A stretch of 64,000 nucleotides of DNA, taken from assembly GCA_013265495.1 (NCBI GenBank), contig MU057809.1, positions 1,417,062-1,481,061 on the forward strand, given 5' to 3'. The notes beneath the pieces are model-generated. The model saw only the letters and a list, made by a program, of their open reading frames with translations. It was not told where the DNA came from and made no database searches. Of this stretch, positions 20,648 to 43,108 are shown in pieces. The position numbers and the translations under genes were made by a program. The stretch is from Vicugna vicugna. Taxonomy: Eukaryota. The stretch's first letter is position 1; each line of letters opens with the position of its first letter.

Positions 20648-20951
20648 ATGCTGCAGTGCCGGCCGGCCGAGGAGTTCAGCTTCGGGCCCCGGGCCCTGAA
20701 GGATGCCCTGGTGTCCACCGACCCGGCGCTGCAGCAGCTCTACGCGTCCGGCTTCTCCCCGGCCGAGAGGCTCTTCCTGGCCGAGGCCTACAACCCCCGC
20801 AGGACGCTCTTCCGCACGCTGCTCATCCGCTCGGCCTTCGACTGGCTCCTCAGCCGCCCCGAGGCCCCCGAGGACTTCGAGGCCTTCCACGCCGCCCTGC
20901 CGCCCCGGAAGCAGGGCCCGACGCAGAGGCACATTTACCTGCAGCCCATAG
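20648..20951 (+). CDS. AMZ1: AMZ1 (archaemetzincin-1) coding exon 1
   Basis: ATG at 20648 (context gtcATGc). Encodes MLQCRPAEEFSFGPRALKDALVSTDPALQQLYASGFSPAERLFLAEAYNP...HIYLQPI, matching the recalled AMZ1 N-terminus. 304 nt, donor gtgccc at 20952, within a CpG-rich zone. Confidence 0.95.
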
Positions 20952-21227: not shown

Positions 21228-21395
21228 ATCTGAGTGAGGGGCCGGTGGGCAGCGCCCTCCTGGACCATCTGCGGAGCTGCACCGAGGCCTTCTTCCTGGG
21301 CCTGCAGGTCAGGTGTCTGCCCTCGGTGGCGGCCGCGTCCATCCACTGCTCGTCGCGCCCCAGTCAGGACTCTGACAGGCTCCAACTGCACACAG
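21228..21395 (+). CDS. AMZ1: AMZ1 coding exon 2
   Basis: Acceptor cccccag, donor gtgagc, 168 nt. Encodes (D)LSEGPVGSALLDHLRSCTEAFFLGLQVRCLPSVAAASIHCSSRPSQDSDRLQLHT. Confidence 0.95.
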
Positions 21396-25398: not shown

Positions 25399-25527
25399 AC
25401 GGCATCTTGTCTTTCCTGAAGAGCAGCAAGCCAGGGGACGCTCTGTGCGTGCTGGGCCTCACGCTGTCCGACCTGTACCCGCAGGAGGCCTGGACCTTCA
25501 CCTTCGGCAAGTTCCTTCCCGGGCACG
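25399..25527 (+). CDS. AMZ1: AMZ1 coding exon 3
   Basis: Acceptor ccccacag, donor gtgagt, 129 nt. Encodes (D)GILSFLKSSKPGDALCVLGLTLSDLYPQEAWTFTFGKFLPGH. Confidence 0.95.
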
Positions 25528-25725: not shown

Positions 25726-25895
25726 AAGTGGGCATCTGCAGCTTTGCCCGGTTCTCGGGGGAACTCCTGCAGCTGGAGCCCAGCGCCCCTGACCCGGCCC
25801 TGGTGGACATGGCAGCAGATGGCACGGAGGCGCCCCTGCAGGACAGAGGCCGCACCATGTGCTTCAGCGCCCTGGGGATGGTCCAGTGCTGCAAG
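25726..25895 (+). CDS. AMZ1: AMZ1 coding exon 4
   Basis: Acceptor ctctccccag, donor gtgggt, 170 nt. Encodes (E)VGICSFARFSGELLQLEPSAPDPALVDM...FSALGMVQCCK. Confidence 0.95.
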
Positions 25896-26286: not shown

Positions 26287-26463
26287 GCCACCTGCCACGG
26301 GCTCTGCCACCTCCTGGGCCTGGGGAGCTGCCGGTGGCTCCGCTGCCTCATGCAGGGGGCCCTCAGCCTGGACGAGGCGCTGCGGCGGCCCCTGGACCTC
26401 TGCCCCATCTGCCTGCGGAAGCTGCAGCACGTCCTAGGCTTCAAGCTCCTGGACAGGTACAAG
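26287..26463 (+). CDS. AMZ1: AMZ1 coding exon 5 (zinc-binding motif, Met-turn, Cys4 site)
   Basis: Acceptor ctcccgcag, donor gtgagt, 177 nt. Encodes ATCHGLCHLLGLGSCRWLRCLMQGALSLDEALRRPLDLCPICLRKLQHVLGFKLLDRYK. Confidence 0.96.
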
Positions 26464-27623: not shown

Positions 27624-27674
27624 GCAGGGGGCCCTCAGCCTGGACGAGGCACTGCGGCGGCCCCTGGACCTCTG
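27624..27674 (+). repeat. Intronic 51-bp duplicate of AMZ1 coding sequence 26352-26402
   Basis: gcagggggccctcagcctggacgaggcActgcggcggcccctggacctctg versus exonic ...gaggcGctg...; 50/51 identical. Confidence 0.95.
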
Positions 27675-28240: not shown

Positions 28241-28783
28241 AGGCTGTACCTGTGGACTCAAGTGGCGGCGGGGACAAGGCCTGGCCTGGAGGCGGGGGAG
28301 CCGTCTGTGTCTGAGGACACCCCGCCCTGCAGCGCGGACTCGGGCCTGTGCTGTGAGAGCGACTCAGAGCCGGGCACCAGCCTGTCGGAGCCCCTCTCCC
28401 CCGACGCCTGGAGCCACGCCTTCCCTGCTGGCCCTGAGCTGGAGCCCGAGGATGGGCTGGGCTCCCTGGCGGCCGCCGAGGGGCCGGTGGCGGCCCTGGC
28501 GGAGCACGGGCGGTGGCTGGCGGCCTGCGTCCAGGCCCTGGAGAGAGATGTGACCGAGGATGAGCTGGCAGAGCTGGACAGGGCGGTGGATGGCCTGGCC
28601 CGCTGGGAGATGTTCACCGGTCGGCTCCCGGCCCCCAGGCAGGGCCTGCCCTGCGGCAGAGACAGTGCGGGGCTGCGCAGAGTCCTGGGGGACAAGTTCT
28701 CCTCCCTCAGGAGGAAGCTGAGTGCTCGCAAGCTGTCCCGGGCCGAGTCCTCCCCCCGGCGCTGGAAGGCCGAGGACAATTAG
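28241..28783 (+). CDS. AMZ1: AMZ1 last coding exon
   Basis: Acceptor tccctcttag ends at 28240. Encodes RLYLWTQVAAG...SADSGLCCESDSEPGTS...WEMFTGRLP...VLGDKFSSLRRKLSARKLSRAESSPRRWKAEDN, with stop TAG at 28781-28783. The spliced CDS totals 1491 nt (496 aa plus stop). Confidence 0.95.
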   Translation, partial: RLYLWTQVAAGTRPGLEAGEPSVSEDTPPCSADSGLCCESDSEPGTSLSEPLSPDAWSHAFPAGPELEPEDGLGSLAAAEGPVAALAEHGRWLAACVQALERDVTEDELAELDRAVDGLARWEMFTGRLPAPRQGLPCGRDSAGLRRVLGDKFSSLRRKLSARKLSRAESSPRRWKAEDN

Positions 28784-40968: not shown

Positions 40969-41538
40969 TCACTGCAGCATGATGTCCTTCAGGTTCTCCT
41001 GCAGGATGGTGTCCTTCACGGCGTGGAACACAAAGCGGATGTTCTCGGTGTCTATGGCGGTGGTGAAGTGGTGGAAGAGGGGCCTGCTGCGGTTCCGCCG
41101 CTTCCGGTCGAAACCCTGGACCAGGTAGCGCTGCACGTCCTCCAGCCTGTGCGGGTCGCCCCGGAAGTCCGGGAAGTGCTTCTTGATGCTGACGGTCTTC
41201 ACCTTCTCCACCAGCAGGTCCATCTTGTTGAGGAACAAGATGATGGAGACGTTGAAGAACAGCTTGTTGTTGACGATGGTCTCAAAGATGTTCATCGACT
41301 CCACCAGCCGGTTGGTGCGCCGGTCCTCCATGAGGACCTGGTCGTACTCACTGGAGGAGACCATGAACAGGATCGACGTGATCCCGTCAAAGCACTGGAA
41401 CCACTTCTGGCGCTGAGACCGCTGGCCGCCCACATCCACCATCTTGAAAGGGATTTTTTTAATGACAAAGTCATGCTCCACGATGCCCTTGGTGGCCTTC
41501 CTTGCCAGCAGGATGTCCTGCTTGCTAGGGCAGTAGTT
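40969..41538 (-). CDS. GNA12: GNA12 (G-alpha-12) last coding exon
   Basis: Acceptor tttttgcag, 570 nt. Encodes [24 protein letters not shown]...[12 protein letters not shown]...FLNKMD...[31 protein letters not shown]. The G2-G5 boxes are intact and the C-terminus is G-alpha-12-specific. Confidence 0.98.
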
Positions 41539-43108
41539 CTGCAAAAACAGGGTAAGGGAGCAAGTCAGGAGGAAGAACGTGAGAAAATAAGAACGAAGAG
41601 ATGGGGTGGAGCGGAAGAGAGTGAGACGGACTTCTGCAAGAAGTTGAACTCAATTCCAACAGCAACTTTCACGTATAAAAATACAGACTTACCGTGAAAC
41701 AGAAAGTGAAGGAACTAAGTAGCTCATTTCAAAGTGAATGGGGGCCCATCAGACTGAGGAAGGAGGGTCAGACGCCTCCTGTCAGGCCCCAGCCTGAAGT
41801 CCCAGCCACTCCCTTCCCCACGGGGACCTACCATCCTTTCTCCCCCTGCACCAGAGCTACCCTCTATTTTCCTAACTTCCAGGCCACACGTCTTCCAAAA
41901 CCTTATTGTGAACTGCTTTAAGTTACGTTTTGCAATGCTGTTTAAATTTAGCCTGCAATATATTCAATATTTTATTCTTGGAGGACTCCTAGAGCCTTCA
42001 GCAACACACAGGCAACTGTGGTCCCTCAGGCCGCTTTGATCCTGCGCTACGCAATTCTGCAGTGATCACTGCACACCAGCACTCACGCAGCATCCTCGCC
42101 AAAAATGCAGCAGGGACGGGGCCTCTAGACCCAACTACCAATTCACAAGGCACACGGGGAGAGAAACTTCCTCAAAAGCACTGCAGGGACGGAAGAGCCA
42201 AGTCCAGATGGGAGGAACCCCACATGGGAAATGGTCCAGTCACTCCTGCATCAAATAGAGCGGAAGAAAGAAAAGAGGGAGGGAGAAACCCACAGATGGA
42301 AAGGAGCTTCAGTGACGTGGACCAGCTGCGACGGGTGGGCCTCACCAGGAGGGCGGCTCAAACTGCTAGAATGGCGCAGCGTCCCCAGGGACGTCACTGA
42401 GACAAGCGGGGAGGCTGGCTGATAGTAAGGAGTTACTTCTAATTATTACCATTTTAAAACTGAAGTACAGTTGATTTACAGTGTGCCAGTTTCTGGTGTA
42501 CAGCAGTGATTCAGTTATACATGGATTTATTCCTTCTCATTACTGTGGATCTTCCAAGGAGAAATCATGGTATCGTGGTTATGATTTTTAGAGCCTTATC
42601 TGTCACGAGACACACTCTAAAACATCACTGATGAAACGATACGATGATGGTTTGCCCCTGGGGGGTGGGGAGGAGGCTGGTGAAACAAGATGAGTCCTGA
42701 GCAGTAACTGTTGACCCTGGACTTTCATTAGACTACTTTTGTGTCTGTCTGAATTTTCCGTAATATTTTTATTCTGAAGGAGGCCTTTGTTTGCGGAAGA
42801 ACTCCTGTCTCCTCTTGGGAGGCCTGGGCCAAGGCGCTCTCACAGAAACACGGCTTCACATCCCGATTTAGCCGGGACTGAAGGTGCACATGCAAGAAGG
42901 TGGGAGCTTCCTCTGTCCGAGTGAGGAAGTCCTCCCCAGCGCACACGCTTCCCTGCCCGCCCTGACACGGGCCGAGTGGGAGGGAGACGCCGAAAGCCAC
43001 TCAGGGTCGTCGGGCACGACAGAGAAAGCCGTCGCGGCTTCGTGGCTCTGGTCCCCGCACAAAGGTTTGCTGACCCTGGATCAGACTCGGGGGTGGGGTC
43101 TTACTCAC

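Follow-up and report, generated by a model that had tools for sequence, protein, structure and literature searches.

The described proteins closest to vertebrate AMZ1 are its paralogue AMZ2, the archaeal AmzA proteins (PDB 3ZVS/4AXQ, 2X7M, 3LMC) and archaeal AMZ-tk, with which it shares the fold, the Met-turn and a four-cysteine (Cys4) zinc site. These relatives keep the metzincin motif HExxHxxGxxH together with the residues of the substrate groove (the edge strand and the equivalent of Asn138), whereas AMZ1 has Leu283 at the Asn138-equivalent position and carries, in addition, an acidic linker and about 80 further residues at the C-terminus. In AmzA and CarG the Cys4 site plays a structural part (PMC3427221). 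The activity of AMZ-tk is minimal after the E183Q substitution and falls to about 20% when a single His is mutated (PMC4681839). The Myxococcus xanthus protein CarG, cited as an inactive archaemetzincin (PMC3427221) and described as a partner-binding regulator (PMC8156234), resembles camelid AMZ1 in having an archaemetzincin motif with the catalytic Glu replaced; it is inactive as a protease, requires its Cys4 site and acts by binding a partner (PMC3427221, PMC8156234). Unlike AMZ1, however, CarG has Gln at this position, keeps all three His and two zinc ions, has CarD as its partner and arose separately in bacteria (PMC3427221, PMC8156234). A further parallel is provided by the inactive ADAMs (ADAM2, 7, 11, 18, 22, 23, 29 and 32), which likewise combine a metzincin fold and a degenerate HExxHxxGxxH motif with retention for non-catalytic roles (PMC11266112), but they sit in the membrane and their dead motif is fixed; AMZ1 looks soluble, and its motif appears intact in most species and is broken differently in several.

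The catalytic status of AMZ1 has been questioned before. Its third zinc-binding His is replaced by Asn, Ser or Thr, "raising some concern" over activity, and the alanine-aminopeptidase activity published for the human protein is called unconfirmed in the same article (PMC3427221). AMZ1 nevertheless continues to appear in lists of proteases or aminopeptidases (PMC2714152, PMC8036322), and it has been presented as a "secreted" metalloprotease degrading the maternal matrix, knockdown of which cut trophoblast invasion (bioRxiv 10.64898/2026.07.06.736876). A locus for normal-pressure hydrocephalus, showing an eQTL in brain, includes the gene as well (PMC11361830). The available passages of PMC2686449 give AMZ1 no class, and the terms AMZ, M54 and archaemetzincin are absent from the main text of a 2024 review of pseudopeptidases (PMC11266112). 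Among the matches listed in a search of the open literature, with subscription journals, supplements and curated databases outside its reach, neither a camelid Gly262 allele nor recurrent loss of the AMZ1 motif was found. The 2005 paper reporting AMZ1 activity was reportedly withdrawn later, and MEROPS may list AMZ1 among its non-peptidase homologues.

Here we analyze the AMZ1 gene contained in a 64,000-nucleotide stretch of the vicuña (Vicugna vicugna) genome, hereafter the window. The gene comprises six coding exons, all with AG/GT boundaries, which encode 496 residues with no internal stop (Table 1). This agrees with an earlier note on this DNA, which had described an intact six-exon gene with the four cysteines and the Met-turn in place. 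Codons 262 and 271, read directly from the window, likewise bear out the motif HGLCH..S271 that it had reported. The complete zinc motif is HGLCHLLGLGS, so that Gly262 stands in place of the catalytic Glu of HExxH, and Ser271 in place of the third zinc ligand, which is His or Asp in active metzincins. The pattern C-x4-C-x-M-x17-C-x2-C, with the Met-turn, can be read in the translated protein. The earlier note had also stated that human AMZ1 lacks the third His, and the human record indeed reads HELCHLLGLGN. Vicuña AMZ1 is 86% identical to its pig counterpart and has the same six-exon size.

Table 1. Location of AMZ1 features and neighboring elements in the window (numbered from its first letter).
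Feature	Position	Strand	Description
AMZ1 coding exon 1	20648..20951	+	residues 1-101; AMZ1-type N-terminal segment
AMZ1 codon 35	20750..20752	+	GGC (Gly)
AMZ1 coding exon 2	21228..21395	+	
AMZ1 coding exon 3	25399..25527	+	bulge-edge/edge-strand segment, residues 188-197; fixed in AMZ2, variable in AMZ1
AMZ1 coding exon 4	25726..25895	+	low-confidence loop 214-244 and start of active-site helix
AMZ1 coding exon 5	26287..26463	+	residues 258-316; degenerate zinc motif, Met-turn, Cys4 site
AMZ1 codon 261	26296..26298	+	H261
AMZ1 codon 262	26299..26301	+	GGG, Gly instead of catalytic Glu; common to all camelid records covering the site
AMZ1 codon 265	26308..26310	+	H265
AMZ1 codon 268	26317..26319	+	G268
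AMZ1 codon 271	26326..26328	+	Ser instead of third zinc-binding His; His missing in 99/103 AMZ1 records
AMZ1 Cys4 structural zinc site and Met-turn	26329..26412	+	C272, C277, C296, C299, M279
Partial copy of exon 5 in intron 5	27624..27674		51-base copy of 26352-26402, same orientation
AMZ1 coding exon 6	28241..28783	+	residues 317-496; acidic linker, C-terminal helices
G-alpha subunit gene, large last exon	40969..41649	-	tail to tail with AMZ1

One of the 11 long frames scanned in the window is the last exon of a G-alpha subunit gene. The human AMZ1 gene adjoins a G-alpha gene too, and since the human locus pairs AMZ1 with GNA12 (PMC11361830), the vicuña neighbor is presumably GNA12. By fold and synteny, the vicuña gene is the AMZ1 orthologue of family M54. 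The vicuña genome contains a single AMZ1-like locus among 12 matches, the remainder being AMZ2 and its copies; the possibility of another intact AMZ1 gene was rejected, as none is among these matches. Vicuña AMZ2 itself is a multi-exon gene with a complete HExxHxxGxxH motif. Three of the AMZ2-like matches, L001 (G000:C7737), L002 (G000:C10560) and L007 (G000:C6214), carry stop codons; the first two run across several exons with no introns between them and have the look of processed pseudogenes. Two minor features of the AMZ1 locus were also observed. The vicuña protein equals the alpaca records (XP_031532596.2/XP_072799509.1) except at residue 35, and is 15-16 residues off the camel records; residue 35 is Ala in the alpaca and camel records, Gly occurs there in none of 95 AMZ1 rows, and Gly35 may be either a private variant or a sequencing error. 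The partial copy of exon 5 in intron 5 is 98% identical to its source, lies 1272 bases downstream of it and precedes a short tandem repeat; its appearance is that of a templated insertion or of a local artefact of the assembly.

In Pfam, PF07998 was the sole match to vicuña AMZ1 (E=0.0013, 19.2 bits), under the cut-off of 24.4, as is also the case for pig and newt AMZ1, and sequence matches in the PDB were to archaemetzincins only. A Foldseek search with a structure model of the protein (86-row alignment, mean pLDDT 74, pTM 0.71) returned AmzA-type structures in its top five rows; the modelled fold superposes on AmzA (3zvs_A) with a Z-score of 16.6 and an rmsd of 1.8 over 158 aligned residues, and the next family reaches a Z-score of 10.6. 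The catalytic residues are absent from an otherwise intact predicted fold. The confident core of the model extends up to residue 327, save for the loop at 214-244, and is followed by a low-confidence, acidic linker (331-396) with 15 Asp/Glu and no Lys/Arg. Beyond it, helices are predicted confidently at 398-417 and 422-433, and a basic helix at 458-478 with medium confidence. Within placentals, conservation is among the highest at residues 1-25 (0.93 identity to consensus), and conserved C-terminal positions specific to AMZ1 include W408, L409, V432, F441, L465, G466 and S470-L476. Over residues 458-480, camelids agree with the consensus of placentals at 23 of 23 positions. No hydrophobic stretch was detected near the N-terminus (best 9-residue mean 0.98), nor anywhere in the sequence one long enough for a clear membrane helix, and from this we infer that AMZ1 is probably a soluble cytosolic protein. 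An atlas search with residues 398-496 gave no usable match and is uninformative, and a prediction of an AMZ1-AMZ2 complex (alpaca AMZ1 1-445 with pig AMZ2, without alignments) scored 0.00 and is undiscriminating either way. Extra cysteines, fixed or nearly so, also occur on or near the active-site helix of AMZ1 (residues 205, 255, 260 and 264, exons 4-5; Phe, Ser, Thr/Leu and Gly, respectively, in AMZ2), and 87 of 95 rows have a Cys at residue 4, close to the N-terminus; the extra cysteines might form a new site for metal, a disulfide or lipid modification.

To compare the two paralogues, we sampled one named record per genus (two for Camelus), obtaining 104 AMZ1 and 91 AMZ2 records. The sample consists mostly of representatives of 90% clusters, two of which, from birds, have 243 and 272 members and were each read through their representative. 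One AMZ1 record (a low-quality bat model) and one AMZ2 record (a sperm-whale isoform) could not be anchored, leaving 103 and 90 for scoring. HExxH is broken in 14 of the 103 AMZ1 records, corresponding to about 10 independent lineages, versus none of the 90 AMZ2 records. Four AMZ1 and 89 AMZ2 records have the third His, and the complete HExxHxxGxxH motif occurs in 1 and 89, respectively; across all 120 AMZ2 search rows, 118 have the complete motif, one has Arg at the third His and one is unanchored. The AMZ1 motif has been disrupted in several ways. The catalytic Glu is replaced by Gly in camelids, by Gln in jerboa (single record) and by Val in tenrec (single record, with a further H to C change) and in the AMZ1-like sequence of lamprey (partial record of uncertain orthology); outside camelids, Gly appears at this position in no named record. 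The second His is Arg in Equus (all four full-length cluster members), Pongo (both species), sloth and anteater, and a sac-winged bat (single record), whereas salamanders have Phe or Leu for a His of HExxH, and a caecilian Gln for the first His (single record). The Met-turn residue is Leu in five AMZ1 records. The only complete AMZ1 motif belongs to the pangolin Manis javanica (P0050, listed with P0066); horse and sloth AMZ1 have His at 271 but Arg at 265. In another bat, Rhynchonycteris naso (P0176, a low-quality model), the motif region is heavily degraded, and its relative Saccopteryx has His265Arg and Met279Leu; this bat family has possibly undergone a real loss of the AMZ1 gene.

A Fisher test on broken motifs (14/103 vs 0/90) yields p=1e-4 but ignores relatedness, and it was therefore set aside for a test based on events. 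After dropping nine short or partial AMZ1 and two AMZ2 records, changes were counted by parsimony, with 58 AMZ1 and 66 AMZ2 records in the placental trees. Scaled by tree length, loss events in AMZ1 versus AMZ2 number 8 vs 0 in placentals (p=0.013) and 11 vs 0 in all vertebrates (p=0.002). Within placental AMZ1, position 271 changes 14 times, H265 five times, E262 and M279 three times each and H261 never. Neither G268 and Q280 nor any Cys4 cysteine changes, and in placental AMZ2 the equivalents of all these positions are constant except for one change at the third His. Among core sites of AMZ1 ranked by number of changes, E262 stands at the 48th percentile and H265 at the 58th, while their neighbors L263, C264, L266 and L267 are unchanged. 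The Cys4 cysteines remain without change across 95 AMZ1 records, an invariance that fits the structural role of this site in AmzA and CarG. The substrate groove follows the motif: when the groove residues named in PMC3427221 are mapped through the AmzA alignment (100 AMZ1 and 55 AMZ2 rows), AMZ2 proves fixed along the edge-strand segment and the S1' wall, where the residues of AMZ1 vary or have been replaced.

The camelid substitution has to be weighed against this background. HGLCH is found in dromedary (XP_031327184.2, KAB1262975.1), wild camel (XP_032315832.1, a RefSeq record labelled low quality, and EPY83188.1), alpaca and the Logan record P0003, whereas pig, peccary, hippopotamus, whales and ruminants have Glu262. 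By this distribution, Glu262Gly arose on the stem lineage of camelids, at some time from ~55-60 to 16.3 million years ago (PMC12127551), and before the split of camels and alpaca (~16 Myr). The earlier note had allowed for a polymorphism or an assembly error, and the G at codon 262 is indeed one base away from a Glu codon and known from assembled records; its presence in the separately assembled dromedary, wild camel and alpaca records, as well as in P0003, leaves a negligible chance that it is an error or a rare allele of this individual, and that reading was rejected on the records of the three camelid species. It may also be argued that AMZ1 is nearly dispensable in placentals, evolving under weak selection and perhaps GC-biased fixation, and that the camelid gene is in early decay. 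The GC3 of 0.90 in vicuña AMZ1, the A-to-G nature of GAG to GGG, the fact that the genetic code allows each of the repeated His-to-Arg changes as a single A-to-G step, the degraded bat model and the low-quality flag of the wild-camel record can all be read in this way. Yet the window holds no stop, frameshift or splice loss, and camelid substitutions have spared conserved sites both before and after the camel/alpaca split. In the core alignment (residues 1-325 of 58 placental records), 88 of the 325 sites are invariant among the 55 non-camelids, and none of the 30 camelid-lineage substitutions (21 stem, 9 crown) falls on them, with 8.1 expected under neutrality (p=8e-5); for the crown alone, the count is 0/9 (p=0.058). 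Over the whole protein, 17 positions vary among three camelid records, all postdating the fixation of Gly262, and none coincides with the 101 invariant sites (p=0.021) or with the 175 sites that are at most 5% variable (6.0 expected, p=6e-4). Exon 5 shows no difference from P0003 in 59 residues, against 8/92 plus frame shifts in the flanking intron frames (p=0.023), for which this camelid-type record, reading through both introns, serves as a rough neutral yardstick. Camelid distances to four outgroups resemble those of pig and cattle. These protein-level tests support purifying selection on camelid AMZ1 after the loss of Glu262, and, with frame and splice sites intact, decay to a pseudogene was rejected at the protein level; near-dispensability as a whole strikes us as quite improbable. 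In 12 runs recorded or guessed as RNA, 0.05-0.16 of the sampled words were present, which is not evidence for AMZ1 expression.

It is also conceivable, though we consider it rather unlikely, that AMZ1 is a weak or narrow peptidase in most vertebrates, working with two His and a non-canonical third ligand or water, and that camelids and a few other lineages have lost this activity while keeping a non-catalytic function. Of 103 records, 97 retain Glu262 and 102 retain H261, despite the ancient loss of the third His, and in 30 records from non-placental amniotes (tree length 2.6) H261, E262 and H265 are all unchanged. In that group 42% of AMZ1 sites are unchanged, so the chance of the same result for three random sites is 0.07. 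The residual activity of AMZ-tk single His mutants (PMC4681839) and the published aminopeptidase activity (as cited in PMC3427221) point in the same direction. Against this stand the ~10 independent lineages that keep the gene without the Glu or a core His, the relaxation of the groove across AMZ1 rather than just in lineages with broken motifs, and the fact that Asn, Ser and Thr are not known as zinc ligands (PMC3427221). The three placental changes at E262 are fewer than the mean per site (4.9) and nowhere near the top decile (13), which indicates a relaxed site, not a neutral one, and the AMZ1 active site may still bind peptide or a loosely held metal, or be weakly active in some lineages. 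Tenrec, sloth/anteater, jerboa and sac-winged bat AMZ1 are fast-evolving overall; those of camelids, horse and orangutan are not.

With HExxH repeatedly broken and the third His nearly always missing in AMZ1, but never or almost never in AMZ2, and with Cys4 unchanged, the comparison of records points most strongly to AMZ1 as a vertebrate-wide pseudopeptidase. Specifically, we assign a probability of roughly 0.65 to AMZ1 being a vertebrate paralogue of AMZ2 with a Cys4-held archaemetzincin fold and a vestigial cleft, kept as a non-catalytic binding protein. By analogy with the AMZ-tk mutants, a protein without both Glu262 and the third His should be inactive. Under the pseudopeptidase reading, the third zinc ligand would have been lost early in vertebrates, leaving the remaining catalytic residues weakly selected and repeatedly lost, Glu262Gly on the camelid stem being one such loss. 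AMZ1 would have been kept for a non-proteolytic job, most likely the binding of a cytosolic partner, as in the bacterial pseudo-archaemetzincin CarG, with the Cys4 zinc site stabilizing the fold. The surfaces conserved specifically in AMZ1, namely the N-terminal segment, helices 398-433 and the basic helix 458-478, are candidate binding sites; partner binding or scaffolding, together with the choice of surface, is speculative. The suggestion that AMZ1 is probably dead but retained, made in the earlier note, accords with a Gly262 common to Old and New World camelids and with the purifying selection that followed. Its view of the loss as a special event of this lineage does not hold, since the third ligand is absent in nearly all vertebrate AMZ1 and HExxH is broken in ~10 lineages. 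With a vestigial site already general in vertebrate AMZ1, the camelid change would be one more hit and not the birth of a pseudoenzyme.

An extended form of the pseudopeptidase reading, on which we are evenly divided, holds that AMZ1 has been non-catalytic since early vertebrates and that in humans HExxH is intact in looks only. The associated phenotypes (trophoblast invasion, the brain eQTL at the hydrocephalus locus) would then stem from partner binding through the N-terminal segment and the C-terminal helices; catalytic nulls would exist naturally in camelids, horse, orangutan and jerboa, and pangolin, with its complete three-His motif, would be a natural revertant. Doubt on AMZ1 activity is already in print (2012, PMC3427221); the camelid allele and the recurrent losses were absent from the matches listed in our search. 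Because pseudopeptidases are common, the camelid substitution is by itself a modest result, but as a naturally fixed catalytic null kept for >16 million years it would make the 2012 doubt directly testable. Should AMZ1 be a pseudopeptidase, the secreted-protease and aminopeptidase readings would have to be replaced by a different mechanism, and inhibiting its active site would serve no purpose. The value of these results rests chiefly on the comparative case that AMZ1 overall does not depend on catalysis, and to a lesser degree on camelids.
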